A stretch of DNA of 58,649 bases, from assembly GCA_030650425.1 (NCBI GenBank), contig JAUSED010000001.1, positions 1-58,649 on the forward strand. The letters are read 5' to 3'. Under the pieces are notes generated by a model. The model had not been told where the DNA came from, made no database searches, and saw only the letters and a program-made list of their open reading frames with translations. Shown in pieces: positions 34,820 through 58,649 of this stretch (positions are counted from its first letter, which is position 1; each line of letters opens with the position of its first letter). A program made the position numbers and the translations under genes. This DNA is from Candidatus Omnitrophota bacterium. Lineage in GTDB: Bacteria; Omnitrophota; Gorgyraeia; Gygaellales; Profunditerraquicolaceae.

Positions 34820-35728
34820 GTGAGGCGTAATATTATACTCTGCATAGGTTTGAGTTTATTGCTTAGCGTTGTTTTAGGATGCGGGAAGTTGGGCATTCCG
34901 GCCGGCCGCAAGCTGGAGGTAAAACTTTCCCCGCAGGCTGCCCAGCCAAAAGGCCCGATCGTCGCTAAGGTGAATAATATTTCCATAGGCTTGGATGATT
35001 TTAATCAGGAAGTGGATATCTATAACGCCAATGTTCCTCCTGAAAAGCCGGAGCTTAAGCTTGCTACGCGCGAGCAGAAGATTAATTATCTCAAAAATGA
35101 AATAGTGCGCAGGACGCTTTTGTATCAGGACGCTTTGGATAAAGGGTTGGATAGGAATGAAGATGTAGTTAGGGCTTTGGAAAAGACCAAAATGGACCTT
35201 TTGGTATTGCAGTTGATTAAAGATGTCACGCAAAAGGTAGATGTGTCTTCCAAGGAGATCGAAGATTATTACAATACTTACAAAGAACAATTGAAAGAGC
35301 CGGAAGAGAGGCAGCTTCGCGAAATCGTGCTTACCAGCGAACAGGATGCCAAGGATATATTGATCCAGCTCTTGCAGGGAGGGGATTTTGCCACTTTAGC
35401 CAAGGATCGTTCGCGTTCAGCCAGCGCCAAAGACGGAGGTGATCTGGGTTTTATCAAGAAAGGGGTAAAGTCGGCGCAGTTTGACGCTGTAGCTTTCTCC
35501 GACTCATTGGAGATCGGTAAGATCAGCAGTATTTTTAAGGCCCCTGACGGATATTATATCATCAAACTGGAAGCCAAGCGCGGCGGAAAACAAAAGCCGC
35601 TCTCCGAGATGTGGGATGATATTAAGCGCGGGTTGACTTTCTTAAAACAACAACAGATGGTCGAAGATCTAATCGGTAAACTTTCTCGCGAAGCCAAAAT
35701 TGAAATCAACGAAGGGGAGATTAAATAG
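34820..35728 (+). CDS. PpiC/parvulin-type peptidyl-prolyl isomerase lipoprotein (SurA/PrsA-like), first gene of the Tad-like operon
   Basis: GTG 34820 lies 6 nt after AAGGAGG. Lipobox LLSVVLG-C. Parvulin domain (REIVLTSEQDAKDIL..GGDLGFIKKG..APDGYYIIKLE). The stop overlaps the cpaB start. Confidence 0.8.
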   Translation: MRRNIILCIGLSLLLSVVLGCGKLGIPAGRKLEVKLSPQAAQPKGPIVAKVNNISIGLDDFNQEVDIYNANVPPEKPELKLATREQKINYLKNEIVRRTLLYQDALDKGLDRNEDVVRALEKTKMDLLVLQLIKDVTQKVDVSSKEIEDYYNTYKEQLKEPEERQLREIVLTSEQDAKDILIQLLQGGDFATLAKDRSRSASAKDGGDLGFIKKGVKSAQFDAVAFSDSLEIGKISSIFKAPDGYYIIKLEAKRGGKQKPLSEMWDDIKRGLTFLKQQQMVEDLIGKLSREAKIEINEGEIK

Positions 35729-36636
35729 TGCCAATAGAAAAACAAAAACTTATTCTTATCAGCGGTATAGCTTTAGGGTTGGTGGTGGTAGTGATGGTGA
35801 AGATGTATTTAGACCAGCAGCAGCAAGCTGTCCGGGAACAGGCAAAGAAGGCGATTGCCAATATGCAGGTTAATCAAACCGCAGTCTTAATCGCCAAACA
35901 GGATATCCCTAAGGGCAGCATGATAGAATCAGCTCCTTTGGATACCTCGGTTGTGCCGAATAAATTTGTTCAGCCGCAAGCAGTTACCTCATTAAGCAGG
36001 ATTTCCGGGATGATTACCGTCGCGGATATCTCCCAAGGTGAACAAGTAACCCTGACCAAGCTGGCTACTTCTAAGCAGGCTGGAGGAGATCTGGCGGGGC
36101 TCACTCCCGCGGGTAAAAGGGCGATCTCTATCGCGGTGGATAATCTTTCTTCTTTGGCGGGGATGATCAAGCCGGGTGATTATGTAGATGTTATTGCTAC
36201 GCTGCAGATTCCGATGCAAAATGCCGAAGGACAGCAGGGAAGCCAGATCGCGGTACTCTCATTATTCCAGAATGTTTTGGTTTTGGCAATGGGGCAAAAT
36301 ACCGGCGGCCCGGTGGCCAGCCGCGGCAGGGGAGAAACTGTCGAAACCACCGGAGGCGGAGTAGCGCCGCTGGTTACTTTAGCTTTAACCCCTCAAGAAG
36401 CAAGTTTTGCGGCTTTTGTTCAGGAGCAGGGGAAAATTCGTTTTACCCTGCGCTCTCCGGCGGATGCTAAAATTGAACCAATTACACCGGCCAACCTAAA
36501 TACACTTTTTCAATATATTATGCCGCAGCAGCAGGCTCAGGCCGTAAGTCAAGAAACTCAGGAAGAAGAACCTAAGATTGAAACAATTGAAATCTACCGG
36601 GGAGCAAGCAAAGAGAGAATCCCCCTGTCTAAATGA
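35728..36636 (+). CDS. cpaB: Flp pilus assembly protein CpaB/RcpC
   Basis: N-terminal TM, SAF-like domain (VLIAKQDIPKGSMIE), RcpC region (GKRAISIAVDNLSSLAGMIKPGDYVDVIATL). Confidence 0.85.
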   Translation: MPIEKQKLILISGIALGLVVVVMVKMYLDQQQQAVREQAKKAIANMQVNQTAVLIAKQDIPKGSMIESAPLDTSVVPNKFVQPQAVTSLSRISGMITVADISQGEQVTLTKLATSKQAGGDLAGLTPAGKRAISIAVDNLSSLAGMIKPGDYVDVIATLQIPMQNAEGQQGSQIAVLSLFQNVLVLAMGQNTGGPVASRGRGETVETTGGGVAPLVTLALTPQEASFAAFVQEQGKIRFTLRSPADAKIEPITPANLNTLFQYIMPQQQAQAVSQETQEEEPKIETIEIYRGASKERIPLSK

Positions 36637-38267
36637 GAGCGAGGAAAATGCGCAAATTATTTACTCTATTGACTTTTATCATCGCGTCGGTTGCAGTCAT
36701 TCCTTTTAAAGTTTATTCGATTGATGATGCTGCTGAAGAAGTAAGATGTTATGTCGGCGAGGTTAAAATACTGCCGGTAAGCAGGCCCCTGCGCGTGTCT
36801 ATAGGCAATCCTGCCATAGCCGATGTGGTTGATATTACCAAGTCCGAGGCAACGATTAATCCGAAAACCCCCGGTACCACTACCTTTACTGTTTGGGATA
36901 ATTTGGGAGAACAGTCTTACCGGATTAAGGTATTTGCCGAGGACACCAACGAAATCAAGCGCCGGATAGATAATATGCTGGCCAAGCTTAACCTGCCTAA
37001 CGTTACCACCAAAGCAGAAGACGAGGAAGATAAAGTTGTGCTTTTAGGGACGGTTAAATCAAATAAAGATAAAGAGAGGATCGCGATTGTTCTGGGAGCG
37101 CTTAAAGACAAGACCGTTGATCTGGTTATCGTAAAAGAGGAAGAGACAAGCTTAGAGATTGATGTGCAGGTGGTGGAGGTGGATAGCGGATATCAAAATA
37201 CATTGGGCTTTACTTGGCCGGGCTCGGTTACTTTTACCGAGATTGGCTCTGCCGCGCTTTCTGCCGGAGGGACAACTTGGGGGAAGGTTTTTCATACGGC
37301 TAATATTGGCCGTCAGGTAAGCGGGGTAGCTGCTCCGTTCACTTTAAAATTGGATGCTTTAGTGCAAGAAGGCAAGGCGCGTATTCTTTCGCGGCCGCGG
37401 CTTTCCTGTCAGAGCGGCAAAGAAGCTAAGTTGGTTGTGGGAGGGGAAGTGCCGGTTTTAAGCGGCGTAGTCACTCCGGGCACAACCACTCCTACTTCAG
37501 TTGGTTTAACCACTGGAGGGTCAGTTCAATATAAGGAGTTTGGGATTATCCTGAACATTAATCCCACATTGGAAGATCTTAACCGTATTCATCTTAATCT
37601 CGACGTACAGGTTAGCGAGTTAGGGGATCAGGTTTCCACGACCTTTGCCTTAGCCTATAAAATGACCAAGCGCACTGCCACTACCGAGCTTTTCCTTAAT
37701 GACGGAGAGACGATGGTCATCGGCGGTTTAATCAAGAAGAAGAACAAAGAACAGGTAAGAAGGGTGCCGTGGCTATCCGAAATCCCGGTTTTGGGCGCCA
37801 TCTTCAGGCAGAAAACTACTCAGCAGGGCTGGACTTCCGATGCCGATAATATCAATGATACGGAATTATTTATTACGCTTACCCCAAGGGTGGTTGCTCA
37901 AGCCAAGCCCAAGGAAGAAATAAGGGCTAATTCCGTCGATACTACTGTCAATACTGCCGGTGAAACAAACAGGCAGGACCCGGTATTAATTTATTCCAAG
38001 ATAGTCCAGAAAAAGATTGTGGAAAAGCTTTCCTATCCGGCCCAAGCCAAAGAAGCAGGATTTCAAGGCACGGTTAAATTAAGCCTCAAGCTTTCTTATC
38101 GAGGAGAATTACTGGATGCAAAAATAAAAGAATCTTCCGCGCACCAACTCCTTGATGACGACGCCTTAAACACGGCGCAAAAAATTTCACCTTATCCTCC
38201 GTTTCCTCCCGCAATAAAAGAAAACGATATCTGGGTAGATATCCCGATCATTTACCGACTGGAATAA
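36633..38267 (+). CDS. cpaC: Tad secretin CpaC/RcpA fused to a C-terminal TonB_C-like domain
   Basis: Pilus-formation N-domain (VGEVKILPVSRPLRVSIGNPAIADVV..TPGTTTFTVWD), BON-like region, secretin core (ILSRPRLSCQSGKEAKLVVGGEVPV..ELFITLTPRVV). The last approx. 90 aa resemble TonB_C (LSYPAQAKEAGFQGTVKLSLKLSYRGELLDAKIKESSAHQLLDDDALNTAQKISPYPPFP). Confidence 0.8.
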   Translation: MRARKMRKLFTLLTFIIASVAVIPFKVYSIDDAAEEVRCYVGEVKILPVSRPLRVSIGNPAIADVVDITKSEATINPKTPGTTTFTVWDNLGEQSYRIKVFAEDTNEIKRRIDNMLAKLNLPNVTTKAEDEEDKVVLLGTVKSNKDKERIAIVLGALKDKTVDLVIVKEEETSLEIDVQVVEVDSGYQNTLGFTWPGSVTFTEIGSAALSAGGTTWGKVFHTANIGRQVSGVAAPFTLKLDALVQEGKARILSRPRLSCQSGKEAKLVVGGEVPVLSGVVTPGTTTPTSVGLTTGGSVQYKEFGIILNINPTLEDLNRIHLNLDVQVSELGDQVSTTFALAYKMTKRTATTELFLNDGETMVIGGLIKKKNKEQVRRVPWLSEIPVLGAIFRQKTTQQGWTSDADNINDTELFITLTPRVVAQAKPKEEIRANSVDTTVNTAGETNRQDPVLIYSKIVQKKIVEKLSYPAQAKEAGFQGTVKLSLKLSYRGELLDAKIKESSAHQLLDDDALNTAQKISPYPPFPPAIKENDIWVDIPIIYRLE

Positions 38268-38268
38268 G

Positions 38269-40425
38269 ATGGCCAAAAGAGTAGTTATATTTAGCACTAA
38301 AGGCGGAGCAGGCAAGACGCTGATTGCCGCTAATTTAGCCGTTGCCCTCGGCGCTGAAGGAAAAAATGCCTGCGTGGTTGATTTAGACGCGCATGTAGTC
38401 GGCGATATGGCGCATATGCTTAATCTTAATCCGCAAAAGTCTATTGTCGATCTTATGGGTTTTTTGCAAAGGGCGCCGCAACAGACCAAGAAAGCGGATT
38501 TTGTGATCAAGACCAACCTCTATAACGTAGATTTTCTGCCGGGGATCTTAAGGCCGCAGCAGGCAGCTTATCTTTATCCGGAGAAGATTAGCAGCGTGTT
38601 CGCGTTTTTGGATAAAGATTATGATTATATCGTTGTTGATGCCGGCGAAAGTTTTAATAATGTTTTTCTTTCTACTTTAAACCAGGCCAATCTGATGCTG
38701 CTGGTAGTTACCCCGGATGTGCTTTCGGTATATCAGGCTAAATGGATGCTCGATACTTTACAGTTGCTGCATTTTCCCCTCAGCATGATTAAGGTTGTAT
38801 TGAACAGGTCAGGTTCCCTCTCGAGTATCAGCTGGCAGGAGATCCGCAATAATCTTCCGCTGGATATAATCGAAAAGATCCCTTCCGACGGAAGGGCGGT
38901 CAATCAGGCGATCAATCAGGGAGTGCCGGTGGTGATTGACTCGCCTCGCTCTAAGGTCGCCCAGTCGATTTTAGGATTGGCACGTACCTTATCCACGGGG
39001 AAAAATTTATTTGTGGATCGAAGAAACCTCGACGAGATTACCTTAAAAGATGCGGTTCTGGAAAAGCCGGCCCAATTTTGGCAGGAGCAGAAGCTGTCGG
39101 AAACGGTGATTGAGCCGGATGGAGAGGATAAGGATGAGATCTCAATCCTTAAGCGCCGCATACACAGCCGGCTTATCGACGGATTAAATATCAAGAAGTT
39201 AAACCTTAATGTTTTTAGCGATCATAAGAAGGCTAGGGAGTTAAGGGATAAAGCAGAAGTGCTGGTGGCTAATCTGCTGGTGGAAGAAGCCGGAAGTTTT
39301 ATTCCTTCCCAGGAAATAAGAAAAAAACTGATTAAGGAGATTCTCGATGAAGCCTTAGCCTTGGGCCCATTAGAAGACCTTTTGTCCGACCCCGATATTA
39401 CCGATATTATGGTCAATAATAAAGATGAAATTTTTGTTGAACGGCACGGTAAAATTGAACTAACCAGCAAGAAATTCATCTCCAATGAACAAGTACGCAC
39501 GATTATCGAGCGGATCATCGCTCCCATTGGAAGGCGCATTGATGAATCTGTGCCAATGGTAGACGCCCGCCTTGCTGACGGTTCGCGCGTAAACGCGATT
39601 ATCCCTCCTTTATCTTTAACCGGCCCCACGCTGACCATCAGGAAATTCCGCAAGGACAGATATAAGACCATTGACTTGATTAAATTTAATTCACTTACTC
39701 CGGAGATCGCGGATTTTATCAAGGCCTGCGTATTATGCCGTAAGAATATGATTGTTTCGGGAGGCACTGGTTCCGGAAAAACCACTGTGCTCAACGCCCT
39801 CTCGGAGTATATCCCTAATGATGAGAGGATTATCACTCTGGAAGATGCCGCGGAATTAAAGTTGAATCAGGCGCATTGGGTAAGGCTGGAATCTCGTCCG
39901 GCCAACATCGAAGGCAAGGGCGCGATTGCCATCAGAGACCTTTTCCGCAATACCCTGCGTATGCGCCCGGATAGGATCATCGTCGGAGAATGCCGCGGCA
40001 CTGAGTCTTTAGATATGCTCCAGGCGATGAATACCGGCCACGACGGTTCAATGACCACGATCCACGCCAATTCTACTTACGATGTCTTATCCCGGCTTGA
40101 TTCGATGATCCTTATGTCCGGAGTAGAGCTTCCGGTAAGGGCTATCCGTGAGATGATCGCATCCGCGGTTGATATCATTGTGCATACGGCCCGCCTCTCC
40201 GACGGATCCCGTAAGATCATGGCTGTTTCCGAGATTGGCGGAATGAAGGATGAATTGCACATTACGCTTAATGATATATTTATTTTCAAGCAGACCGGAG
40301 TGGATACTCAAGGCAAGGTGCAGGGATATTTTACCGCTACCGGTTATAAGCCTTCTTTCTTGGACGAAATTCGGGTGCGCGGGCTGGCGATTTCTGAAGA
40401 GATCTTTAAACCCTCCAAGCCATAA
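38269..40425 (+). CDS. Fused CpaE/TadZ-like ParA/MinD ATPase and CpaF/TadA secretion ATPase
   Basis: N-terminal part: [24 protein letters not shown] (deviant Walker A). C-terminal part: [71 protein letters not shown]. Confidence 0.85.
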
Positions 40426-40432: not shown

Positions 40433-40777
40433 ATGCGCTTAATTAATCAAACCAAGAATACTATTTTAGCCGAAACTGTTTATTTTGCCGATACTCCTTG
40501 CAAAAGGATCAAAGGATTATTAGGAAGGAAGAATTTCGCTAGCGGAGAAGCCTTAATTATTAAACCCTGTAATGCAGTGCATACCTTTTTTATGCGTTTT
40601 CCCATTGATCTATTGTTTGTAGACAAAACCAACAAAGTGCTCAAGGTAATCTCAAATCTTACACCCTTTCGTCTAAGCCCCGTTTACTTTAGAAGCTGTC
40701 TGGTAGTTGAATTGCCAGCCGGGAGAGCAAAATCCACCTTTACTAGCCAAGGCGACCAGTTAGTTTTTTCCCCTTGA
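40433..40777 (+). CDS. DUF192 (COG1430) family protein
   Basis: ADTPCKRIKGLLGRK..ALIIKPCNAVHTFFMRFPIDLLFVDKTNKV..VVELPAG. The track ORF start (40250) lies inside cpaF in another frame; the ATG at 40433 is used instead. Confidence 0.7.
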   Translation: MRLINQTKNTILAETVYFADTPCKRIKGLLGRKNFASGEALIIKPCNAVHTFFMRFPIDLLFVDKTNKVLKVISNLTPFRLSPVYFRSCLVVELPAGRAKSTFTSQGDQLVFSP

Positions 40778-40852
40778 AATGTCCAATCTAATCCACCTTG
40801 ACAAATCTAGGATCTGTGCTAAGCTAGGATTGAGCTTAGAAATGTCCAATCT
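40777..40852 (+). promoter_or_regulatory. Two copies of the 13-nt motif AAATGTCCAATCT bracketing the promoter of the HTH gene
   Basis: Exact copies at 40777-40789 and 40840-40852. The promoter at 40798-40825 lies between them. Confidence 0.7.
40798..40825 (+). promoter_or_regulatory. Sigma70-type promoter with extended -10
   Basis: TTGACA (40798-40803), 16 nt, TGcTAAGCT (-10 at 40820-40825). Confidence 0.5.
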
Positions 40853-40861: not shown

Positions 40862-42820
40862 ATGGGCGCAATCCATAAACTAACATCAGAAGTAAAAGAT
40901 TTTGTCTTAGCGCAAAAGAACTGCAATTCTGCTTTAAGCTGCCGTAAGCTTACTGCCTTAGTCTTGGATAACTTTAAGCTAGAGTTATCCAAATCCAGTG
41001 TGAATGCTATTATCAAAGAAGCAGGGTTAAGCGCGCCTGTGGGGAGGACGCCTAAGAAGAGGCGGCACCGCATAGTGATGCCTAATTTGCCTTTATTGCT
41101 GGATGGATTGGTTAAAGAAGTTTCCAATGACCAGGCAGTGACAGCTCCGTTTATTGATCCATTACTAAAAAAGGCTCAAGAGGAGGCTGAGCAAAAAGCT
41201 AAGCTGGAGGCGCAACAGGAGGAAAAACTTGCGCAAGAAGAGGCTAAACGTAAAACCGAAGAAGAAGCTGCCAAAAAAGCACAAGAAGAGGCGGAGAAAG
41301 AAGCGCTCCGTCGGCAGGAAGAAGAGAGATTAGCCCAGCAGGCCCAAGAAGAAGCCAGGCAAAAAACGCAAGAAGAAGAAATCAGGCGTGCGGCAGAAGA
41401 AGAAGCTGCCAAAAAAGCCGAGGAAGAGAAATGGCTAAGGTTAGCTAAAGAAGAAGCTGATAAAAAAGCTCAAGAAGAAGCGGAAAAAGAAGCGCTCCTT
41501 CGGCAAGAGGGGATGCAGGCCTTGGGTAGCTTAGGTATGGATAGGTTTCCTGAACTGGAAAATACCGGTATAATCTTACTTAGGGCCGCGGATTCTATTA
41601 TTGGGGTAAGTAAATTAATCGTCTCGACGCTTAAGAGCAGGCTTCCCAAACTAGAAGGTAATTTTGAGGGTGTGGTAGAGAATATTATTTATCTTCCTTT
41701 GTTACAGGGGAAAATAGAAAATAGCCTTATAGATAAAGTTTCCGGCGCCTTGGATGAAATAGAAAATATAAAAGTGATGAATTTAGACATTTCGCGGATG
41801 ATAACTTTAGGCCTGCGTGAGGTCCGCTGCGTAAAAGTCATTTTATCCGACGGGTCTAATCTATATCTGGACGCTCAGTTATATTCAGTCTGGTCTTCGC
41901 CGCACGTCCCTTATGACTTTGCTTCTCCTGTCCACGATCTTAAAAGGCGGGTGAATAAATATTTTAACACGGATTCTCCGCTGATCCTTTTTAACGCCCC
42001 GGGTTACGATATTCCTTCTCTGGAATTCCTCAATTTTATGTCTAGCTTTGAAGCTAAAGGAGCGAATATCACTAATCTGGTTTTTTACGGAAACAAATTG
42101 GAAGAGTTGGAAGTTTTGCCCATAGTTCAGGCTAAGAAGCGTTCCTTTATCTTCGCGATATGGCCATGGCAGTTTACCGAGTGCCGTAAGGTTAAAAGTT
42201 TAGGCGAATTCCGGCGTTTTCATCTCGAGGAGGAGAATAAAGATCTATATATAGCGGATATAACCATGGAATTACGGCATATCGGCGCAGGCAAACAGGT
42301 GACCCTATACGGATGCGCGGTAAAACTAAGCCTTACCGAGAAGACCCGCATGGTTGTCCTCAGTAATTTTATTCCCCAAGATAAAAGCTCGGAGGAATTA
42401 ATCACCGCGTATCTTAACCGCTGGCCTAATCCGGATGAGGCTTTTCAGGACTATAGCCGTAAAATCGAGCTTTTTACTTATACTGCCAATTCCCAGCGTT
42501 ATTTTAGCGCAGAAAACCTCAATTTAGGACTGGACCAAGTTTCCAATGCCAGGGACCTATTTAAGGATTATTTAACGGCCTTAGATGCTTATGTGCGTTG
42601 GCATCTTCTGCCAAATGGATACGAAGATAAGGAGTTTAGCTTAACCCGAGAGCGGTTTTATGATTTAGGAACACAGCTAGCGAAAAGCAGCGAAAGCTGT
42701 ACAGCAAGTTTTATTTTACCTTCGGGTTACTCTTTTGGAAAGGACCTAACATATCTTTGCCACCGGGTGAATGAGAGGGAAGTTGTTTTGGAAGGAAAGC
42801 GCTTTCTCCTGCGGCCTTAA
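40862..42820 (+). CDS. HTH protein with E/A/K-rich coiled-coil repeat region and a large C-terminal domain carrying degenerate DDE-transposase-like signatures
   Basis: N-terminus: LSCRKLTALVLDNFKLELSKSSVNAIIKEAGL then GRTPKKRRH (transposase-style HTH). Residues about 105-215: AQEEAEKEALRRQEEE-type repeats. C-terminus: VILSDGSNLYLD, LFNAPGYDIPSLEFLNF, and AYLNRWPNPDEAFQDYSRK, which resembles the Y-x2-R-W..E..F..K tail of IS4-like transposases. By eye only. Confidence 0.45.
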   Translation: MGAIHKLTSEVKDFVLAQKNCNSALSCRKLTALVLDNFKLELSKSSVNAIIKEAGLSAPVGRTPKKRRHRIVMPNLPLLLDGLVKEVSNDQAVTAPFIDPLLKKAQEEAEQKAKLEAQQEEKLAQEEAKRKTEEEAAKKAQEEAEKEALRRQEEERLAQQAQEEARQKTQEEEIRRAAEEEAAKKAEEEKWLRLAKEEADKKAQEEAEKEALLRQEGMQALGSLGMDRFPELENTGIILLRAADSIIGVSKLIVSTLKSRLPKLEGNFEGVVENIIYLPLLQGKIENSLIDKVSGALDEIENIKVMNLDISRMITLGLREVRCVKVILSDGSNLYLDAQLYSVWSSPHVPYDFASPVHDLKRRVNKYFNTDSPLILFNAPGYDIPSLEFLNFMSSFEAKGANITNLVFYGNKLEELEVLPIVQAKKRSFIFAIWPWQFTECRKVKSLGEFRRFHLEEENKDLYIADITMELRHIGAGKQVTLYGCAVKLSLTEKTRMVVLSNFIPQDKSSEELITAYLNRWPNPDEAFQDYSRKIELFTYTANSQRYFSAENLNLGLDQVSNARDLFKDYLTALDAYVRWHLLPNGYEDKEFSLTRERFYDLGTQLAKSSESCTASFILPSGYSFGKDLTYLCHRVNEREVVLEGKRFLLRP

Positions 42821-42871: not shown

Positions 42872-43051
42872 ATGGAGGGAAAGAAAGGGGAAAGCCGCGG
42901 TTATCTTAATGGCCAGAGCTTAGTAGAGTATTTTATCCTTTTTGCTATTCTGGCGGGTTTATCTTTGTTTCTGCTTTCGCCGCAAAATCCTAAAAATATT
43001 CCGGCTATGTTTAGCAGTTATGTTTCAACAGCCACGGAAAAAATGAAATGA
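42872..43051 (+). CDS. Flp-type prepilin-like protein 1
   Basis: G/QSLVEY followed by the hydrophobic helix FILFAILAGLSLFLL. Start moved to the ATG at 42872 because the track start lies inside the promoter. Confidence 0.65.
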   Translation: MEGKKGESRGYLNGQSLVEYFILFAILAGLSLFLLSPQNPKNIPAMFSSYVSTATEKMK

Positions 43052-43245
43052 AGATAGATAATAACAAGGCCCAGAACGTGTTAGAATATACGATGCTGAT
43101 CATTATCGCTGCCGCGGCATTGGTAGCGATGACTACCTATATTATGCGTTCGATGAACGCCCGGATTATGCAGACGAATGACGAACTGAATTATTACCGG
43201 CTGGAAGATACAGCTAAAGCAGATGTGGCGAGTCAAATAAAATAA
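43048..43245 (+). CDS. Flp-type prepilin-like protein 2
   Basis: A/QNVLEY then TMLIIIAAAALVAMTTYI. Overlaps the stop of pilin 1. Confidence 0.6.
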   Translation: MKIDNNKAQNVLEYTMLIIIAAAALVAMTTYIMRSMNARIMQTNDELNYYRLEDTAKADVASQIK

Positions 43246-43259
43246 CGGGAGGAAACGAG

Positions 43260-43430: not shown

Positions 43431-43444
43431 TAGAGGAGGAGAAA

Positions 43445-43783: not shown

Positions 43784-43799
43784 GTTAAGGAGGAGAGTT

Positions 43800-44105: not shown

Positions 44106-44118
44106 TCAGGCGGTAAAG

Positions 44119-44472: not shown

Positions 44473-44473
44473 A

Positions 44474-50922: not shown

Positions 50923-51005
50923 CCCGTGTAGGGGACACTTTCCGTCAGGGTTCTTACTAAACTACTAAAGGAAAGTGTCCCCTACACGCGGGAAACTGTC
51001 CCCCC
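50923..51005. repeat. REP-B element
   Basis: CCCGTGTAGGGGACACTTTCCGTCAGGG...GGAAAGTGTCCCCTACACGCGGG plus GAAACTGTCCCCC. Confidence 0.85.
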
Positions 51006-51028: not shown

Positions 51029-51056
51029 TTGGTATTTGTGATAATATTGCTATAAT
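51029..51056 (+). promoter_or_regulatory. Sigma70-type promoter with extended -10, near-leaderless for the porin gene
   Basis: TTGGTA (51029-51034), 16 nt, TGcTATAAT (-10 at 51051-51056). 9 nt to the ATG at 51066, no SD. Confidence 0.45.
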
Positions 51057-51065: not shown

Positions 51066-52235
51066 ATGATTACCCGTTGGATTATTCGCTCAAGCCTTTC
51101 TTTAATAATCCTAGCTCTATCTTCCCCTTCATTATCTGCCGCACCCACAGCCTTAGAAATAGCCGCGCAATTTAATAAATCCAGAGAAGGTTTTGCCAAT
51201 AAATACGGGACGCGGTTTGCCTTTCTTTTTAATTACACCCAGCAGCTCATTTTGAAAAGCAGCTCAGAAAAAGGAAAGAGCGGCGGCGTTGGGTATGGGA
51301 ACTTAGAGTTGGCCCAGAGGCTTTGGCAGGGCGCGGAGTTATTCGCGGAATTTGAAGTGGACCGGGGTAAAGGAGTGGATAAGTTTTTGCCTACCTTCTC
51401 GGGCTTGAATGACAACTCAGGGGAGGATGCCAATCTTTACCTCCCTGTTTTATATATGGACCAAAAACTTTTTGATGAGAAAATATTAATCGGCGCCGGA
51501 AAATTGGATTTATCCTATTGGTTTGATGGTAATGAAGCGGCGAACTCCGCGGATACACAATTTCTATCCAGCGCTTTAGTGAATAGTTTAACTCTTCCTT
51601 TTCCGTCCAAGGGAATAGGCGCGATGGCAAGCTTCGAGCCCTGCGAGTGGGTCTATTTTCAGACAGGGGTAGCTACAGCCAAGGCAAAGTCCACTAAAAC
51701 AGGATTACCTGACGCTTTTAATAGCGCGTTTGTTCTTAATGAATTGGGTTTTACCCCGAAGATTGGGAAATTGCAAGGGAACTACCGTTTTATTTTTAAT
51801 CTCAATCATGAAAAGTTAGAATACGTTAATAAGAGCGATGAAAGCAAAAAAAATGATTTTGGTTTCGCTGTAAGTTTTGATCAGGCGATTACTAAGCGCA
51901 TAACTTTATTTTTGCGCTATGGTTTGGCTGATCCGAAAGTAAGAGACATTGAACATTACTGGTCCTGCGGAGGCCAGCTATCCCAACCTATACCCGGCCG
52001 TAAACTTGACATTCTGGGAATAGGCATAGCCCAATCTATTTTTGGCGATGATTTTCGCGAAGCAAACGGAGAAGATACAGCCAGCCGCGAAACTATTTAC
52101 GAAGCCTACTACAGTTACAATGTAAATGACGCCATCGCCCTAACCCCGAGTATCCAGATAGTCACTGATCCCAATGGCGATAAAACAGCCGAAACTGCAA
52201 TTGTCTGCGGCCTTAGATTTCTTCTTAGTTTTTAG
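51066..52235 (+). CDS. OprB-like carbohydrate-selective porin
   Basis: Signal peptide. LWQGAELFAEFEV..NLYLPVLYMDQKLFDEKILIGAGKLDLSYWFD..DTQFLSSALVNS follows the OprB family pattern as I remember it. C-terminal F (..RFLLSF). Confidence 0.55.
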   Translation: MITRWIIRSSLSLIILALSSPSLSAAPTALEIAAQFNKSREGFANKYGTRFAFLFNYTQQLILKSSSEKGKSGGVGYGNLELAQRLWQGAELFAEFEVDRGKGVDKFLPTFSGLNDNSGEDANLYLPVLYMDQKLFDEKILIGAGKLDLSYWFDGNEAANSADTQFLSSALVNSLTLPFPSKGIGAMASFEPCEWVYFQTGVATAKAKSTKTGLPDAFNSAFVLNELGFTPKIGKLQGNYRFIFNLNHEKLEYVNKSDESKKNDFGFAVSFDQAITKRITLFLRYGLADPKVRDIEHYWSCGGQLSQPIPGRKLDILGIGIAQSIFGDDFREANGEDTASRETIYEAYYSYNVNDAIALTPSIQIVTDPNGDKTAETAIVCGLRFLLSF

Positions 52236-52241: not shown

Positions 52242-52361
52242 TAATGTCCAATCTCGCTCAGGGGACACTTTCCTTTTGAGGCTTTTATTAGAGTCCTGAC
52301 GGAAAGTGTCCCCTACTGTTGAGCACAGAAATGTCCAATCTGCCTAATAAATGTCCAATCT
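52242..52361 (+). promoter_or_regulatory. Three copies of the 13-nt motif (T/A)AATGTCCAATCT
   Basis: 52242-52254 (TAATGTCCAATCT), 52329-52341 and 52349-52361 (both AAATGTCCAATCT). Confidence 0.7.
52259..52316. repeat. REP-B element (inverted relative to 30483-30538)
   Basis: CAGGGGACACTTTCCTTTTGAGGCTTTTATTAGAGTCCTGACGGAAAGTGTCCCCTAC. Confidence 0.85.
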
Positions 52362-52407: not shown

Positions 52408-52515
52408 AAAGGGGACACTTACCTTTGCGTCAGAAAGGGACATTTTCCTTTTGAAGTTCTAGTGAGAGCCATGACGGAAAGTGTCCCTTTCTGCAGAGGT
52501 TGGAAAGTGTCCCCT
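52408..52515. repeat. Cluster of degenerate REP-B units
   Basis: AAAGGGGACACTTACC..AGGGACATTTTCCTTTTGAAG..GACGGAAAGTGTCCC..TGGAAAGTGTCCCCTG. Confidence 0.75.
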
Positions 52516-52575: not shown

Positions 52576-52603
52576 TTGACAGCGACGAGCTACGTGTTAT
52601 ACT
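52576..52603 (+). promoter_or_regulatory. Strong sigma70-type promoter with extended -10, about 290 nt upstream of the giant ORF
   Basis: TTGACA (52576-52581), 16 nt, TGtTATACT (-10 at 52598-52603). Confidence 0.6.
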
Positions 52604-52892
52604 TAGAATGTAATCGATGGAAAGGAACGAAATGGCAAACCCAGAGCAATCTGGAGGCGCAAAGCCACGGGTCCTCGATAATTTAAAGCAACGATTTTCA
52701 CAGGATAGCCGGGCTGCCGAATTACCGACGAGGAATTTGACAGTTCGGTTTTTTATTTGTAAGTTTAGTAAGGCATTTTACAAACTCTTTATAAAACAAA
52801 TATGAAAGATTCTCACACGCAATTTGAAAAAGTGCTGGGGGTAAGGGGGAGATTATATTCAATTTCTTTTTCATATAGTAATATAAAATAAA

Positions 52893-55800
52893 ATGATAAA
52901 GCCTAAGATTCAGACAGAAGACAGGGTAGCTGCCAAAAAAGAATCCAAGGAAAAGTTCCATTCCAGCTTTAAGACTTGGATCCGTGTGGTGGCTTTTATC
53001 GTAGCCGCGGTCTTCTTGCCCGAGCAAGTGGCCCAAGCCGTAGAGTATGACTGGCGCGTGCTCTGGAATAAGCCAGCCATCGGCCTTCCTTCCAACAACG
53101 TTTTTAGCCCGAATTACCTTAAAAATGTCCAATCTGTGAATATTCCTCAAGCAGTAAAAAGTATCCTCAAAGATATAGCTAATAAGCCCATAACCGCCAT
53201 CAAAATTTCAGATAATCTGACCATCAATTTGAATAAGCCCTTGAAAATGTCCAATCAGAGGATAGATGAGCTTTATAATTGGCTCTTAGGCAAACCTTGC
53301 GGTTCCAAGGCACTTTATGACTATTTGAATTACAAGGGAATTCAGGTTGAAGAGCAGGACATTGCGGTTTTAGCCCTGACTATAGATATTTTGAATGATG
53401 TGGTCAAGCCGGAAGGTAACCCTAAAGTAATTAAAAATTCCCTTTATGCCTTGTCCAGGACTTCAGCATTCTTCGGCGCCAAGCTTTATCCTGTATCATT
53501 GCGTGATTGCTTCGTCGGGCTTCGCCCTCCTCGCAATGACGAATCCGGTGTCATTGCGAGCGAGCCCACAGGCGAGCGAAGCAATCTCTTAAGCAGCCTA
53601 GTTCCTTTCATCGCTCACCTCAACGGCGACCACTATGTTTTAGTAACCCGTATAAGCGAAGATAAAATTTATTTTAGCGATCAGCACAGAGAAGAGTTTT
53701 TACCCATAGATAAATTTCTTAAAGAATTCTCCGGTTATGCTTTAGTTACTTCCAAAGATTTACCGCCAATTTCGGATAACGAAGCTAAAACTATTTTAGG
53801 CGCAAAATCCGATTACTCCTCTGATTGGCATCCTTCCGCGTCTAACGCCCAGATGCAGGCATATTCCAATAAGACGATGGAGAGCTTGCATAGTGAAATC
53901 AAAGCTATGCGCACCCATGCCGAACATCAATTTATCAAGGATATTACTATCAGCGTAGGAAGTTCCTTTGCTATGGCTGCTATATCCAGCTATGCCAAGC
54001 CTTGGTTTAACACCAAATCTACCGGAGTCGGCTCTAAGGTTTTAGGTTTAGGCCCTACTGCCAGATGGGCGATCACCGGAGCGGTTGCCGGAACTGCGGT
54101 ACACGGCCTGACCACCGGGCAATGGTTTAAAGGCAATTGGTATCTTTACACTGCTGGAGGTGCGGCAGCAGGAGCGGCAGTGCCTTCTGTAGCGCAAGCT
54201 TGGAATACACAGGGTTCATGGCTTTCTCCGGTTAGGAAAGCCACTGATTCTTTTAAGAGTTCTATTAATGGTGCTTTTGGAGGAACGCCTGATCTTGCGC
54301 AATCACCTTGGGAATTTCCGCGCCCGAGCCTTGGCACAACGGCACAACTGGATGTTACAGCCCCGGGTTTATTTAGTAACCTCGGGGGTGTGGGCCATGG
54401 TATGTTTAATGCCGGAGTAGTTACGCTCACCTCGAATATATTTTCATTAGCCGGAATGAAGCCACAACAAACAGAGTTACTTTCCGCATTTACTAGCGGC
54501 GCATTATTGGGGATGGTCGGCGGGCTGGGAAATATGACCAATGGCCTGCAATGGTATCAGGCAGGCATCAGCGGAGGCCTTTCTAATTTAACCAGCACTT
54601 ATGTTACTAGCTTAGCCACAGAGCAATTAAGCATCAAGAGCCCTGCTCTGGCTAAGTTTATTGGTGATACCGCAGGCCTAGCTACCAGTGTCCTTGTTAA
54701 TGGGGCCTTCTATTCTCTGAATGGCCAGTCCATAGATATGGCCAGTCCTAAAATTAAAATTGGTTTACCAGCTGATTTAGGAACCGGTGATAAGATCTTG
54801 AAGGCAGGCATTGGAACCTATGGCGAGTATATCTGGAATAATAGCTGGCGAGGGTGGACTGCAAGTTTAGTTGGCAACGGAGTAGCCGAGATAATTACCC
54901 GGAATCCTAAGCTTATCGGCCTAACGGCTAAAGACCTTGAGACTATGCCCTATGCCAGCGCTATCGGACAGGGGATTACCAGCGGTTTTGGTTCAGCATT
55001 TAAAAATGATACGTTCATCCAGAGTATTTCTAAGGGCCTATTAACCAGCGCCTTGACCATCGGTGAAGCCAAGATAGAAGCTGATATGCTCAAACATAAC
55101 CCCCGGATGACCCCGGTTATGTCCGCGTATTTAATTGATGCCGGCACCGCCGCATTCAGAGGTTTTATGGAAGGTTTTCTTTCTCCTACGGTAACCGAAA
55201 GTATCCGCAATCAGAAATTAGATATCAACAACCAGACCTTTGAACCCGATTCCGCGGCCATAGGGTTTTTTACGCGCACTTTTAACGCGTTAGAAACGGA
55301 TGGTTTAAACGCTTCTAGTTTTGGATATACAGGCCGTGAGCTAAGCGCGTTTGGAGAAATATCCTATATGCATACTTTGACTGCTACTTTTGGGCCGACG
55401 ACTCCAGAGATACTTAGGCAGCAAATGGCTAAGGGTGCGTTTCAGGGAACAGCAGTAGGTGAAGGTTCTACGGTAAATGTAGCCTTAAGCGATGGCACGT
55501 TGGTGCCGCTTACGCTTTCTGATGCTTCCAAGTCAAATCTAAATGGTTCTACCATAATTCCTTTCATGGGGACACAGCCGCGCAAAGATCTTACGTACAC
55601 AGATATAGGCGGTAATAAATGGACGAGTAACGGTGACGGCACATATGCATTACAATCCGTGAAGAAGCAAGAGGGGAGTTTTATCGCCGGATGGGCCCAG
55701 ATCGCCCATGATAGTTACCAGTCTGGCGCGGTAAGAAATATGGTAGGGACAATCGCGGTTATACCTGCTGCCCGCGAATTCTTACATTTGCCGGTTAGCT

Positions 55801-58649
55801 TTATGACGCATTACAAAGACGCCAAGGGAGATATTCAAGATGGAAGTTTGGTATTAGAGAGAACTAATTTTACCGATAAATTAGCTACAACCAGCCTGCG
55901 GACTTTAAGTATATCGGATAACTTCGGTAATCCCGTATTTAGTCAGACTACCCAGAATCAGAGGGTTATTGATGAGGGCAAGATTAAATCCTTCTCCGCG
56001 ATCAGCGCTAACTATTGGGCTAAAGGAGAGGGTTTTATAAGCAGGACGGAAAATTTCTATTATGACAAGAATACCAAACAATTTATGTCCAATAGCTTGG
56101 TGACTACTCAAGCGGGGACGACTACTGTAAACGGTTTAGCCGGCACGACTTTTAGCAAAGATTATCAGAGTGAGTTACAGCTTAGCGCTCAATTTTTACA
56201 AGCCAACGGTATTTCCACCTCTGTTGGCGACGGGAAGATCTATTTACCCGGTAAACCAATGCAAGGAGTTCAACTGTTGGTAGGAGGAACACTGCTGCTT
56301 TCTCCGCAAGATGGAAAATTGCAATCCAGCGTGGTAGTGAATAATGATAATGGAAAACTAAAGGTTAGCGGCTGGGCGTATCATTCGGATAATCCATATT
56401 TTAATAATATCGGCGTTAATGGAGTAAGCTATACCAATAAGAATTTAGCCGATGCCGAGAAAGCATTACAATCTGGTAACACTGGATCTGGTAAATCCAA
56501 AGATGCGGATAGCGATGATTCATCCGGCGGCAGTTATAATGTTACCAAAGATAGCAACACGCTCATTTTTAATTTAAATCGCGACAAAGATGCCGCGCGT
56601 ATTACTCCTGATGGCGGTCTTGTGATGGGAGAGGGTGATAGAGTACGTTATGATAGTGGCACGCTTACTGGTATAGGCAGCAATGTAGGCAATCAAGCAT
56701 TTAAAATATCGGCTGATGCAGACAATGGAGAGGCAATAATTGGCGCCTTGGGGGTAGGGAGAACAGGCAAGGGGGTAGGGCTTATTCCTCTTACCGGTAG
56801 ATGGGATATTAGTAGTTCTGGACAAACAAATATTAATAATGGCCAGACTGTGTTTACGGGGAATCAAGTCTCCGTATTAAATAATATTCCACTTATAAAG
56901 GATTCATCCGCAGGATTTATAATCGAACATGCTAAATTGTTTGGTTCTGGCTATCAAGGTAGTTATGTTGTTTCAGCTATTGCACAGGGAGAATATTTAT
57001 TAACCTTAACCAATAATGGTGAGAGCTGGGTCCCGCACTGGCAAGACAAGGGTTTAATTACCTCTATAGATTTGACTACCAAAGAAAGCCAGAGTAATCC
57101 AATTGATTTGATCGATAGGGCGAAAAACGGTACGGCTGAGGCTTTGGCCAGCCGGATGACCTATTTCTCTCAGGTAATGCCTAATGGAGCTAATACGAAT
57201 GAAAAAGATGCTGAAGCCGAACAGCATAACCTACCTGCTGCGCAACCCGGATCAGCAAATTCTACTACACCGATTACAAAATGGAATACAGGGGAAAGCG
57301 GAGCTGGCTTTGAATCTGTTTCCACTAATGGTATACAGCACGCCTTTGATTTAAATGGATTAGCGCTGAATCCGACGGCTGCTAACAGCGTAAATGTTTC
57401 ATCGATGTTTAATAACGCGGAACATACGTTCGTGAATAATTATGCGAAAAGCGCGTTTACTTCCGGCGTGCAGCTGGATGATAAGGGTAATGTAACGGGG
57501 CGAATGATTGCCGCTATCCCGCTTAACGAAGGCTCATTAGCCGGTAAAACAGTTCAATTAAATGATCACGGATTTGTTATTACAGGTGGATTTAAGTCGG
57601 GGTGGAGAAGTATAAATGCAAACGGGTCGTTCTTTAAAACTTTGATAGGTGACGATAAAGATAATGTTGCTTTAGACAAAGCTGGGCTAGAGAACGTTAG
57701 CTTCTGGGTGGCAAATGGTGGAGCAAAATTCTTGAATTTCAGCATCGGCGTATTAACATTAGAGGGAAACAAGTATACCAAAAATAATGGCTTAGTTTTT
57801 GGAGTGGCAGAGAACGTTCAAGGCGGGGCTGCTCCATATCTTGCTGTGGTTCCAGACAATCCTTTGATTTTGACTCAAACCAAAAAACCATCGACTGTAC
57901 TTGACGAAAATCTCGATAATCAATTAAGCGGAGATAGAGCAAATGAATTATTGGGGCGCCAAGAGATTGTTAATAAATTACCCACAGAGTATAACGCAGC
58001 TAAAGATGAAGGGTATAAAGTTCTTCAGGAAACCTTTGCTAAAACTTATGCTCCTAATTCGACCTTAAATCTTTATTTAAATCCTAATAATGGTGTAATT
58101 TACGCAGACGGTACTCAGCGAGTCAATGTATTGATATCTAACTTAAATTCTACCAACGCAGCACTTTCAGGAGATTTCCGTAACACTACATTTGGGATGA
58201 ATTCTTTCGGAAGAAAGGATTATATTGCTACTACAGTATTTTTAGATGATAAACAGAATGTATCTTTTACCAAAGGTATCTTTAAGAACGACTCCGCAGG
58301 CGGCGTAGTGCAGACGGATTATTTAGGCAGGGTTACTACTGATAAAGCAGGGATATATGTAGGTAATCCCAAGAATCGCGTAGATGCCGCCTTGCAGTCA
58401 GCGAAAAGAAGTGAAATAGGTAGAGTAGTTGATTCAACCGTTATCCTTAAAGATTACTATTATAAAGCAGTAATAGGCAAAGAAGGCGCGATTGAGAAGA
58501 TCCTCGAAGGTAAAGCCGGTCAGCTGGTGATAGACGGTAAGAACGCTTTAAGCCAAGGTGACCATGACTTATCCAGCGGCATACTCAAGACCGTAACCGG
58601 GGAAACGCTCTCCTTAATCGCCTCTCCTGCTAAATTAAATAATCTTGAA
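52893..58649 (+). CDS. 5' part of a giant ORF (at least 1919 codons, no stop before the window end): N-terminal membrane anchor, C39-like cysteine peptidase domain, Gly/Ala-rich hydrophobic region, long T/N/G-rich beta-type region
   Basis: I read the frame from the ATG at 52893 codon by codon to 58649 (5757 nt = 1919 codons) and saw no in-frame stop. It is missing from the ORF track, presumably because no stop is reached, and only short antisense ORFs are listed there. TM: WIRVVAFIVAAVFLPEQVAQA. C39-like: GKPCGSKALYDYL (Cys at 53298-53300) ... VPFIAHLNGDHYVLVTRI (His at 53631-53633). Confidence 0.8.
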   Translation, partial: MIKPKIQTEDRVAAKKESKEKFHSSFKTWIRVVAFIVAAVFLPEQVAQAVEYDWRVLWNKPAIGLPSNNVFSPNYLKNVQSVNIPQAVKSILKDIANKPITAIKISDNLTINLNKPLKMSNQRIDELYNWLLGKPCGSKALYDYLNYKGIQVEEQDIAVLALTIDILNDVVKPEGNPKVIKNSLYALSRTSAFFGAKLYPVSLRDCFVGLRPPRNDESGVIASEPTGERSNLLSSLVPFIAHLNGDHYVLVTRISEDKIYFSDQHREEFLPIDKFLKEFSGYALVTSKDLPPISDNEAKTILGAKSDYSSDWHPSASNAQMQAYSNKTMESLHSEIKAMRTHAEHQFIKDITISVGSSFAMAAISSYAKPWFNTKSTGVGSKVLGLGPTARWAITGAVAGTAVHGLTTGQWFKGNWYLYTAGGAAAGAAVPSVAQAWNTQGSWLSPVRKATDSFKSSINGAFGGTPDLAQSPWEFPRPSLGTTAQLDVTAPGLFSNLGGVGHGMFNAGVVTLTSNIFSLAGMKPQQTELLSAFTSGALLGMVGGLGNMTNGLQWYQAGISGGLSNLTSTYVTSLATEQLSIKSPALAKFIGDTAGLATSVLVNGAFYSLNGQSIDMASPKIKIGLPADLGTGDKILKAGIGTYGEYIWNNSWRGWTASLVGNGVAEIITRNPKLIGLTAKDLETMPYASAIGQGITSGFGSAFKNDTFIQSISKGLLTSALTIGEAKIEADMLKHNPRMTPVMSAYLIDAGTAAFRGFMEGFLSPTVTESIRNQKLDINNQTFEPDSAAIGFFTRTFNALETDGLNASSFGYTGRELSAFGEISYMHTLTATFGPTTPEILRQQMAKGAFQGTAVGEGSTVNVALSDGTLVPLTLSDASKSNLNGSTIIPFMGTQPRKDLTYTDIGGNKWTSNGDGTYALQSVKKQEGSFIAGWAQIAHDSYQSGAVRNMVGTIAVIPAAREFLHLPVSFMTHYKDAKGDIQDGSLVLERTNFTDKLATTSLRTLSISDNFGNPVFSQTTQNQRVIDEGKIKSFSAISANYWAKGEGFISRTENFYYDKNTKQFMSNSLVTTQAGTTTVNGLAGTTFSKDYQSELQLSAQFLQANGISTSVGDGKIYLPGKPMQGVQLLVGGTLLLSPQDGKLQSSVVVNNDNGKLKVSGWAYHSDNPYFNNIGVNGVSYTNKNLADAEKALQSGNTGSGKSKDADSDDSSGGSYNVTKDSNTLIFNLNRDKDAARITPDGGLVMGEGDRVRYDSGTLTGIGSNVGNQAFKISADADNGEAIIGALGVGRTGKGVGLIPLTGRWDISSSGQTNINNGQTVFTGNQVSVLNNIPLIKDSSAGFIIEHAKLFGSGYQGSYVVSAIAQGEYLLTLTNNGESWVPHWQDKGLITSIDLTTKESQSNPIDLIDRAKNGTAEALASRMTYFSQVMPNGANTNEKDAEAEQHNLPAAQPGSANSTTPITKWNTGESGAGFESVSTNGIQHAFDLNGLALNPTAANSVNVSSMFNNAEHTFVNNYAKSAFTSGVQLDDKGNVTGRMIAAIPLNEGSLAGKTVQLNDHGFVITGGFKSGWRSINANGSFFKTLIGDDKDNVALDKAGLENVSFWVANGGAKFLNFSIGVLTLEGNKYTKNNGLVFGVAENVQGGAAPYLAVVPDNPLILTQTKKPSTVLDENLDNQLSGDRANELLGRQEIVNKLPTEYNAAKDEGYKVLQETFAKTYAPNSTLNLYLNPNNGVIYADGTQRVNVLISNLNSTNAALSGDFRNTTFGMNSFGRKDYIATTVFLDDKQNVSFTKGIFKNDSAGGVVQTDYLGRVTTDKAGIYVGNPKNRVDAALQSAKRSEIGRVVDSTVILKDYYYKAVIGKEGAIEKILEGKAGQLVIDGKNALSQGDHDLSSGILKTVTGETLSLIASPAKLNNLE
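53123..53257 (+). promoter_or_regulatory. Two copies of the 13-nt motif inside the giant ORF, in two different reading frames
   Basis: 53123-53135 AAATGTCCAATCT (read as K-N-V-Q-S). 53245-53257 AAATGTCCAATCA (read as K-M-S-N-Q), with flanking CCCTTGAAA shared with the copy at 40771-40789. Confidence 0.65.
53493..53588. repeat. REP-A inverted pair inserted in frame inside the C39-like domain of the giant ORF
   Basis: GTATCATTGCGTGATTGCTTCGTCGGGCTTCGCCCTCCTCGCAATGAC-GAATCCGGT-GTCATTGCGAGCGAGCCCACAGGCGAGCGAAGCAATCTC. 96 nt = 32 codons (VSLRDCFVGLRPPRNDESGVIASEPTGERSNL), no stop. Confidence 0.85.

Follow-up and report, generated by a model that had tools for sequence, protein, structure and literature searches.

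We analysed a 58,649-nucleotide (nt) stretch of DNA from an Omnitrophota bacterium, termed the window, in which a Tad-like (Flp pilus) gene island is followed by the 5' part of a giant gene. The island stretch reaches from approximately 34.5 kb to the window end, and all large open reading frames (ORFs) in it are found on the + strand, as a preliminary description made from the sequence had claimed. Gene families were assigned by Pfam hidden Markov model (HMM) searches against the curated cut-offs. The preliminary description had let its Tad assignments stand or fall with such searches, and they hold. The gene order it listed is confirmed as well (rotamase lipoprotein, RcpC, secretin-TonB_C, ParA-T2SSE, DUF192, TadG-like, TadB/TadC, OprB and giant ORF). 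The parvulin lipoprotein with which it began the island was correctly identified; its start is corrected here to the ATG at 34796, and it is preceded by a conserved ORF of 80 amino acids (aa). The features from this ORF to the window end are the following (family matches are given with E-values):

34524-34766, + strand: conserved 80-aa membrane ORF before the island (translation; an 80-aa ORF is found at the equivalent place in the related loci L085, L087 and L090)
34796-35728, + strand: parvulin/SurA-like peptidyl-prolyl isomerase (PPIase) lipoprotein (Rotamase_2 1.1e-15; LGC lipobox)
35728-36636, + strand: RcpC/CpaB (PF16976 8.9e-24)
36633-38267, + strand: secretin (RcpA/CpaC-like) with a C-terminal TonB_C domain (T2SS-T3SS_pil_N PF13629; Secretin PF00263 2.7e-38; TonB_C 3.9e-16)
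38269-40425, + strand: ParA/MinD-like (CpaE/TadZ-like) domain fused to a CpaF/TadA ATPase (ParA/AAA_31; T2SSE PF00437 1.4e-61, residues 365-643)
40448-40777, + strand: DUF192 protein (PF02643 3.7e-18)
40862-42820, + strand: conserved 652-aa protein (putative N-terminal helix-turn-helix (HTH), variable coiled coil and conserved C-terminal domain of ~430 aa without known fold)
42872-44809, + strand: seven small pilin-like genes with a class-III/Flp-type signal G/A-QxxxE-Y (signal motif)
44822-45481 and 45481-46395, + strand: two TadE-sized pseudopilin-like genes (signal motif)
46486-48102, + strand: TadG-like protein (PF13400 5.9e-8, 33.3 bits versus a cut-off of 22.3)
48168-48938, + strand: exported protein (AF_1845 family in homologues)
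48913-49206, + strand: eighth small pilin-like gene, directly before TadB (signal motif)
49215-50060, + strand: TadB (T2SSF PF00482 2e-16)
50063-50920, + strand: TadC (T2SSF PF00482 3.6e-16)
51066-52235, + strand: OprB-family porin (PF04966 7.5e-35, 121.4 bits versus a cut-off of 22.9, residues 87-389)
52893-58649, + strand: giant gene, 5' part, 1919 aa, running off the window (N-terminal signal/anchor, C39 peptidase domain, variable region)

Relatives of the giant gene were collected by scanning an alignment of its N-terminus against one genome per species. This yielded 80 loci, mostly from records named Omnitrophota and some from records named otherwise, e.g. 'uncultured Planctomycetales'. 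An alignment of the leaders of 29 loci revealed one strongly conserved block upstream of the giant gene, which starts at a promoter and contains the following predicted elements:

52576-52603, + strand: sigma70-like promoter TTGACA-N16-TATACT with TG immediately before the -10 element (11/12 matches)
52625-52722, + strand: c-di-GMP-I-type (cyclic di-GMP) riboswitch aptamer (Rfam RF03167 c-di-GMP-I-GGC, 59.5 bits versus a gathering score of 59, E 1.5e-11)
52706-52765, + strand: intrinsic terminator hairpin and U-run (hairpin 52706-52750; minimum-free-energy fold, RNAalifold and pair counts)

The promoter is the best promoter-like site in a 13-kb scan. All seven related loci that were tested reach the Rfam gathering score for the aptamer (59.6-64.6 bits). 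Across an alignment of 25 sequences the aptamer helices are 98.9% paired, and seven pairs are changed on both sides; none of 500 shuffles reached these values, and slid registers were only 28-45% paired. A covariance model built from this alignment detects the element in about 75 of the 80 loci (55-136 bits), invariably on the + strand and shortly before the giant gene, even where the giant gene has no Tad genes next to it. The 5' arm of the terminator is at the same time the 3' strand of aptamer helix P2. Its helix is 98.7% paired across the alignment, compared to 12-56% in slid registers, and at pair 113-149, 13 sequences have U-A and 11 have C-G. A ligand, c-di-GMP or a related cyclic dinucleotide, would bind the aptamer and stabilise P2; with P2 closed the terminator could not form and transcription would run into the giant gene, which would make the element an ON switch. 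In Vibrio, Clostridioides and Geobacter, pili, adhesins and large surface proteins are under the control of c-di-GMP-I riboswitches, and the predator Bdellovibrio expresses one at a high level. Since it has its own promoter, riboswitch and terminator, the giant gene is, as judged from the predicted elements, a separate transcription unit and not simply the last gene of an island operon. No report of a riboswitch linked to Omnitrophota giant genes was found in the literature searched, in which the giant-gene promoter, the c-di-GMP-type riboswitch and the conserved boxes upstream of them (see below) all seem to be unreported. The segment between terminator and giant gene shows further features. 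A possible upstream ORF of 27 codons (ATG 52803 to TAA 52884) shares the reading frame of the giant gene and terminates 6 nt before its start; a conserved GGGGTAAGGGG block is found at ~52842-52855, about 40 nt upstream of the giant start codon; and there is no Shine-Dalgarno sequence directly before the giant ATG.

The second conserved element is the motif AAATGTCCAATCT, termed TGTCCA box after its core. A motif scan of the window finds seven copies (five exact and two with one mismatch), all on the + strand and starting at positions 40777, 40840, 52242, 52329, 52349, 53123 and 53245, where 0.09 copies are expected; none of 100 shuffles reached seven. They fall into three groups:

40777-40789 and 40840-40852, + strand: two TGTCCA boxes flanking the TTGACA promoter-like site of the 652-aa gene, the second abutting a GGAG ribosome-binding site
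52242-52361, + strand: three TGTCCA boxes upstream of the giant promoter (cluster position conserved in 61 of 73 loci)
53123-53135 and 53245-53257, + strand: two TGTCCA boxes inside the giant coding sequence, in different reading frames

The preliminary description had noted that an island-internal promoter and the 5' region of the giant gene share this motif, and both the number of copies and their conservation in related loci bear it out. As a minor correction, two of the copies at the giant gene are found within its coding sequence. With up to two mismatches, AAATGTCCAATCT recurs in most of the 80 loci. Typically, two to three direct copies of the TGTCCA core are spaced ~20-31 bp apart and lie 240-380 nt upstream of the riboswitch. 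Near the riboswitch, the + strand has 5.63 boxes per kb and the - strand 0.38, compared to 0.18 per kb on the + strand elsewhere. The 61 loci mentioned above have at least two boxes, and + copies outnumber - copies by 164 to 11. The layout at the 652-aa gene, with one box after the DUF192 stop codon, the TTGACA site and a second box running into GGAG, is the same in the window, L085, L087 and L073. In four loci the riboswitch and boxes are found 1.5-7 kb upstream of the C39 N-terminus (L041, position 8593; L045, 8108; L067, 2550; L078, 6285), and the genes in between probably form a riboswitch-controlled operon.

The second of the boxes within the coding sequence (53245-53257) encodes K-M-S-N-Q, and it could be a mere by-product of coding for these residues. 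In all 26 loci that have xMSNQ, the serine codon is TCC. This serine is the only conserved four- to six-fold degenerate column with complete codon identity, whereas the other Ser, Leu, Pro, Gly and Ala columns reach 33-96%. The sequences are related, so this suggests, rather than establishes, that the box is under selection at the nucleotide level, and the coding explanation is rejected in part. A further candidate explanation, that the boxes belong to the hairpins formed by the repetitive extragenic palindromic (REP)-like repeat GGGGACACTTTCC (see below), was rejected since these hairpins are seen only in the window and the boxes in most of the 80 loci. Finally, it is doubtful that the boxes are simple class-I activator sites at the giant promoter, 190-330 bp upstream of whose -35 element they are found.

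From their copy number, placement and conservation, the boxes are to be regarded as a genuine cis-element common to the island and the giant gene. We infer that they are operators of a single DNA-binding protein, for which the 652-aa protein would be the obvious candidate, acting on its own gene by autoregulation. Because of the strict strand bias, the main alternative is that the boxes act at the RNA level, as sites for an RNA-binding protein or small RNA or as processing or stability signals, and not as operators. In four lineages the copy at the 652-aa gene that touches the ribosome-binding site lies downstream of the promoter-like site, many clusters begin 10-50 nt after the stop codon of TadC or of the porin, and some copies are located within the giant coding sequence, all of which would fit a function in the transcript. 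However, the spacings of ~20-22 and 30-31 bp correspond to whole helical turns, as is typical of a protein bound to one face of the DNA. Moreover, the first box at the 652-aa gene lies upstream of the -35 element and hence outside that transcript, and no conserved RNA structure was seen around the boxes in the 29-locus alignment. We regard an RNA-level function as rather unlikely.

The 652-aa protein, which is conserved in many related loci, was searched for known domains. It has no significant match in Pfam, NCBIfam or PDB (phmmer), and a profile built from nine sequences of the family matches only low-complexity coiled coil in the PDB. A member-wise Pfam scan gives weak matches to HTH_33/HTH_32 (E ~0.008) in three of the nine homologues. 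Of the label 'HTH/coiled-coil' previously given to the protein, the second half stands and the first is weakly supported.

How regularly the island and the giant gene occur together was assessed by tblastn of the window island proteins at those 55 loci whose upstream sequence reaches 4 kb or more. In 40 of them the giant gene is preceded on its own strand by TadB and TadC, at a median of ~2 kb from the giant N-terminus, and other Tad parts lie upstream in five more. Tad-linked loci usually also encode the exported, TadG-like, TadE-like and 652-aa proteins, in window order; the order of the machine genes is constant throughout the phylum. The synteny is also seen in two independent context look-ups, and the adjacency found in the window is conserved in related genomes. 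No Tad genes are found within 10 kb at ten of the 55 giant-gene loci, a part of which are additional paralogues within one genome; L069, for example, occurs as a second giant paralogue together with the Tad-linked copy L012. In L004, a fragment resembling an IS200/Y1 transposase lies between TadC and the giant gene. The proposal that the whole region is one functional module is partly supported, namely by the conserved linkage and the shared motif.

The association of Tad genes with giant genes is itself already published, and the window is a typical example. In West-Roberts et al. (bioRxiv 2023), homologues of gspD, gspE and gspF, rcpC, a Rotamase_2 PPIase and small genes with class-III signals are described upstream of the giant gene, in a locus that is conserved across the phylum and called type II secretion system-like (T2SS-like). 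Giant ORFs of this type are longer than 10,000 aa, with numerous transmembrane regions and a SecA-DEAD-like domain, and in the full-length genes C39 domains are encoded close to the N-terminal signal peptide (West-Roberts et al., bioRxiv 2023). The arrangement is described explicitly there, and the direct linkage to the giant ORF, which the preliminary description had listed among the unusual features, is not new. Moreover, secretion or pilus genes (T2SS, type IV pilus or Tad) flank 13 of 14 giant genes in another study (bioRxiv 10.64898/2026.06.07.730766), and Tad complexes together with giant ORFs have been described in Omnitrophota, with Tad complexes in Velamenicoccia (Seymour et al. 2023, PMC10066038).

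The porin had been proposed as a part of the coupled module as well, which is not supported. It is found between TadC and the giant gene in only four of the 55 loci, the four closest relatives, and is a lineage-specific insert. A promoter-like site (51029-51056) precedes it and REP-like hairpins flank it. These intergenic hairpins are formed by the inverted repeats GGGGACACTTTCC / GGAAAGTGTCCCC, of which there are 16 matches with up to two mismatches, compared to ~1 expected. They are found at 30485-30573, 46411-46457, 50931-51003, 52261-52313 and 52411-52514, and thus also between the TGTCCA boxes and the giant-gene promoter. An inserted porin, hairpins that separate the units and a promoter-like site for each unit are what would be expected if Tad island, porin and giant gene were merely neighbours with no shared function. 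However, the order of Tad genes followed by giant gene is kept although the giant N-termini are only 53-72% identical and the outer flanks differ. In addition, the boxes are common to island and giant gene, and in some genomes a c-di-GMP riboswitch is found inside the Tad island, too. Incidental adjacency is already disfavoured by these observations, and we consider it highly improbable.

The machine encoded by the island had been called non-canonical. Yet the fusion of ParA and T2SSE (CpaE-CpaF) is found in more than 100 Omnitrophota protein clusters (~719 aa, 71-90% identity), the fusion of Secretin and TonB_C likewise in more than 100 (~530-545 aa), and the class-III genes and rotamase are already part of the published description. 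The two fusions and the expanded pilin set, previously taken for oddities, are the standard Omnitrophota form of a Tad-like machine. The pilin count of the preliminary description was matched exactly: [GA]QxxxE[YFLI] followed by a hydrophobic stretch occurs in ten ORFs, seven of them small, two TadE-sized and one more small (48913-49206). At the level of Pfam, Class_IIIsignal passes for one ORF only (43260-43430; 1.6e-5, 25.1 bits versus 23.7), Flp_Fap stays below its cut-off for the pilin-like ORFs (14.9 bits versus 32.2), and so does TadE PF07811 for the TadE-sized ones (17 bits versus 22.9, E 0.0068). The longer pilin-like proteins (43445-44809) have a common C-terminal motif, [ST]-R-[TA]-G-[ST]-[EQ]-x-[VI]-[GE] (e.g. 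STRTGSQTIG and QSRTGSEKVEG), which is also present in the distant relative L070 (2152-3540) and could be a sorting, cross-linking or processing signal. Between the TadG-like and exported-protein genes, a hairpin with a perfect 20-bp stem (48109-48153) could be an internal terminator or an mRNA-stability element. No A24 prepilin peptidase (PF01478, TadV/CpaA) was matched by any window ORF of at least 120 aa, which confirms the absence noted earlier, and it is likewise missing from the gene tables of the related islands examined; it may be encoded elsewhere in the genome.

The last reading frame of the window is open from 52887 to 58649; counted from the ATG at 52893, it has 1919 codons. In about 35 related loci with 10 kb of downstream sequence, the giant ORF is still open at the locus end (at least 3580 aa). 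Because the homologous ORFs stay open, there is no sign that the giant gene stops just beyond the window, an outcome that the preliminary description had regarded as damaging to its proposal; here, it is judged from the relatives. An exact-protein look-up for the rest of the contig, made with the porin as query, returned only a 1.3-kb Logan contig. In L002 (10001-25631 of a 2.15-Mb contig), the genes that follow a 1876-aa C39 protein overlap end to end (491, 653, 1079, 389 and >2758 aa), as though frameshifts in a long-read assembly had split one giant gene. Where homologues of the giant ORF carry a source name, it is nearly always Omnitrophota/Omnitrophica, and most are entered as 'cysteine peptidase family C39 domain-containing protein, partial'. 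Conservation is limited to the first ~300 residues (53-74% identity among homologues), which comprise a basic stretch, one hydrophobic helix ending in AQA and a domain with an invariant Cys and His; only one strong hydrophobic segment is found within the 1919 aa. The domain matches Peptidase_C39 (PF03412; 3.9e-7, 30.4 bits versus a cut-off of 22), and Cys116 and His227 (alignment numbering) are found in all 16 aligned sequences. A structure predicted from the 16-sequence alignment has a mean predicted local distance difference test score (pLDDT) of 70, and above 80 over the core of the C39 domain. Foldseek places this model with the C39 double-glycine peptidases LahT, PCAT1 and ComA (E 9e-5, target TM-score 0.62-0.68), with 6mpz, 7n87, 3b79 and PCAT1 as the best matches. 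Since the domain follows the signal/anchor, it is probably extracytoplasmic. The idea that it stands in for the missing prepilin peptidase was rejected, because the pilin leaders end in R/K/N-G or K-A and not in Gly-Gly, and because the domain is probably on the outer side.

The conserved synteny with the island, the secretin and the ten pilin- or pseudopilin-like genes, which resemble a T2SS pseudopilin set, allow a stronger reading, in which the Tad-like/T2SS-like machine is a dedicated export or display apparatus whose pseudopilus pushes extracytoplasmic parts of the giant protein through the secretin. The name T2SS-like given to the locus by West-Roberts et al. (bioRxiv 2023) goes in the same direction. 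Specific recognition would, moreover, fit the first 60 residues of the giant protein, which include the signal/anchor and are conserved to an unusual degree (55-74% identity, with many invariant positions). However, the protein has an ordinary Sec-type signal/anchor (hydrophobic core, then AQA) and no pilin-type signal, ~18% of the giant-gene loci are without Tad genes nearby, and machine and giant gene are predicted to be separate transcription units. Moreover, secretion of substrates longer than 10,000 aa is not known to us from any Tad system. Dedicated export is in our view rather unlikely.

An operon that diverges from the island adds to the regulatory context:

33052-34260, - strand: FIST sensor-domain protein, first gene of the operon (FIST 1.5e-26; FIST_C 1.4e-21)
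31577-33049, - strand: histidine kinase (HisKA 7e-20; HATPase_c 7.4e-30)
30635-31570, - strand: response-regulator receiver and GGDEF-like protein (Response_reg 1.4e-32; GGDEF 2.5e-15, covering only profile positions 5-89 of 161)

An operon of this type adjoins the island in four of the five lineages examined, namely in the window, L085/86, L087/88 and L090, and not in L089. It is complete, with three genes, in lineages whose secretins are 76% and 66% identical to that of the window. A lineage with 55% secretin identity has the FIST and histidine-kinase pair, separated by an insert, in a locus that ends inside the kinase gene, and nothing comparable is found beside the island in the lineage with 60% secretin identity. 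The outer flanks of the islands differ among the lineages compared. The active-site motif of the GGDEF-like protein, which aligns to GGEEF of PleD, is GGDDF and is invariant in three homologues; since it is not GG[DE]EF, cyclase activity cannot be assumed. Besides the riboswitch of the giant gene, L041 has a canonical c-di-GMP-I riboswitch (RF01051, 39.4 bits versus 35) inside the Tad island, after the 652-aa gene, and L070 a weak riboswitch copy before the first pilin gene. Giant genes that are followed by PilZ genes, and GGDEF domains encoded inside giant genes, have been reported (West-Roberts et al., bioRxiv 2023). Together, the divergent operon, the island riboswitches and this report point to cyclic-dinucleotide control of both the island and the giant gene. 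The divergent operon near the island appears to be unreported in the literature searched.

Taking these lines together, we consider it probable that the window contains an ordinary Omnitrophota Tad-plus-giant locus, with a predicted ON riboswitch before the giant gene, operator boxes shared with the island and cooperation of machine and giant protein at the surface. One DNA-binding protein, most economically the 652-aa protein, would bind the boxes and couple island and giant gene in their expression. At the cell surface, the Sec-targeted giant protein and the pilus machine would cooperate in attachment to, or attack on, other cells.

Several points count against this interpretation. The Rfam score of the aptamer is barely above its threshold (59.5 versus 59), and the best fit is to a variant class, RF03167 'GGC', whose ligand is not known to have been determined, so that c-di-GMP is an uncertain ligand here. 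With GGDDF in place of GG[DE]EF, the neighbouring protein may not make c-di-GMP. Promoter, terminator and ON logic are predictions, and the 652-aa protein has no significant match to a DNA-binding domain. The boxes are separated from the downstream -35 element by ~190-330 bp, a long distance for a simple activator, and are found on one strand only, so that a role at the RNA level is possible. Finally, ten of the 55 giant-gene loci are without nearby Tad genes, and any physical or functional interaction between machine and giant protein is hypothetical.

A bolder version of the probable reading would be one dedicated second-messenger circuit for giant gene and Tad island throughout the phylum. 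The FIST, histidine-kinase and receiver-'GGDDF' proteins would make a cyclic (di)nucleotide that is sensed by the variant riboswitch, in some genomes a second riboswitch before the pilin genes would sense the same nucleotide, and TGTCCA operators bound by the 652-aa protein would couple both promoters. If this were true, with a non-canonical ligand for the variant pocket and the GGDDF enzyme, it would be a private signal for deploying proteins longer than 10,000 aa when prey is contacted. We think it unlikely that the circuit exists in this form.

Omnitrophota giant genes belong to the largest genes known. The window locus adds no new type; its analysis exposed a conserved control region with boxes, promoter, cyclic-dinucleotide-type riboswitch and terminator. 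This regulatory anatomy is conserved across the phylum, appears to be undescribed and is directly testable in vitro. The switching of giant genes thereby becomes addressable without a cultured organism, using a 150-nt RNA, a 13-bp DNA box and metatranscriptome reads sorted into terminated and read-through transcripts.

The remainder of the window, from 1 to 30 kb, contains housekeeping genes (aminoacyl-tRNA synthetases, IF3, RNase Y, DXS, PFOR, 6S RNA and tRNAs). The 6S RNA gene (8285-8447, + strand; Rfam RF00013, 75.2 bits) is located between the genes for the PheRS beta-subunit and an MgsA-like ATPase. A nucleotidyltransferase/HEPN pair of the MNT-HEPN toxin-antitoxin type (226-1207, + strand) lies beside the tRNA cluster at the window start. 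Moreover, a 1012-aa GTPase of the EF-G family (9751-12789, + strand) has an N-terminal extension of ~320 aa without a Pfam match.

Compared to canonical Tad/Flp systems (type IVc; Aggregatibacter tad, Caulobacter cpa), the island has the CpaF/TadA ATPase, TadB/C, the RcpA/CpaC secretin, RcpC/CpaB, the ParA-like CpaE/TadZ domain, G/XXXXEY-type signal motifs in pilin-like proteins and a TadG-like protein in common. It differs in that CpaE is fused to CpaF, the secretin carries TonB_C, there are eight small pilin genes, DUF192 and 652-aa proteins are embedded, no prepilin peptidase is found in the island or window and no TadD/RcpB homologue was seen. The parts list matches the locus of West-Roberts et al. 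(2023), down to the giant gene that follows directly and has its C39 domain close to an N-terminal signal peptide; the OprB porin, placed after TadC and before the giant gene, is peculiar to the sub-lineage of the window. The words 'riboswitch' and 'promoter' do not occur in that text, and the promoter-riboswitch-terminator unit, the TGTCCA boxes and the divergent operon are not described there. The C39 domain has the fold of those of PCAT/AMS bacteriocin exporters (LahT, PCAT1, ComA) and keeps the catalytic Cys and His; unlike in these exporters, it is not fused to an ABC transporter and is placed after a signal/anchor. Finally, the aptamer matches the c-di-GMP-I family (GEMM-I, Rfam clan CL00126) in its architecture of a P1a/P1b hairpin and P2 and in its conserved nucleotides, with a predicted terminator as expression platform, and compared to the canonical c-di-GMP-I model RF01051 it fits the variant model RF03167 best.

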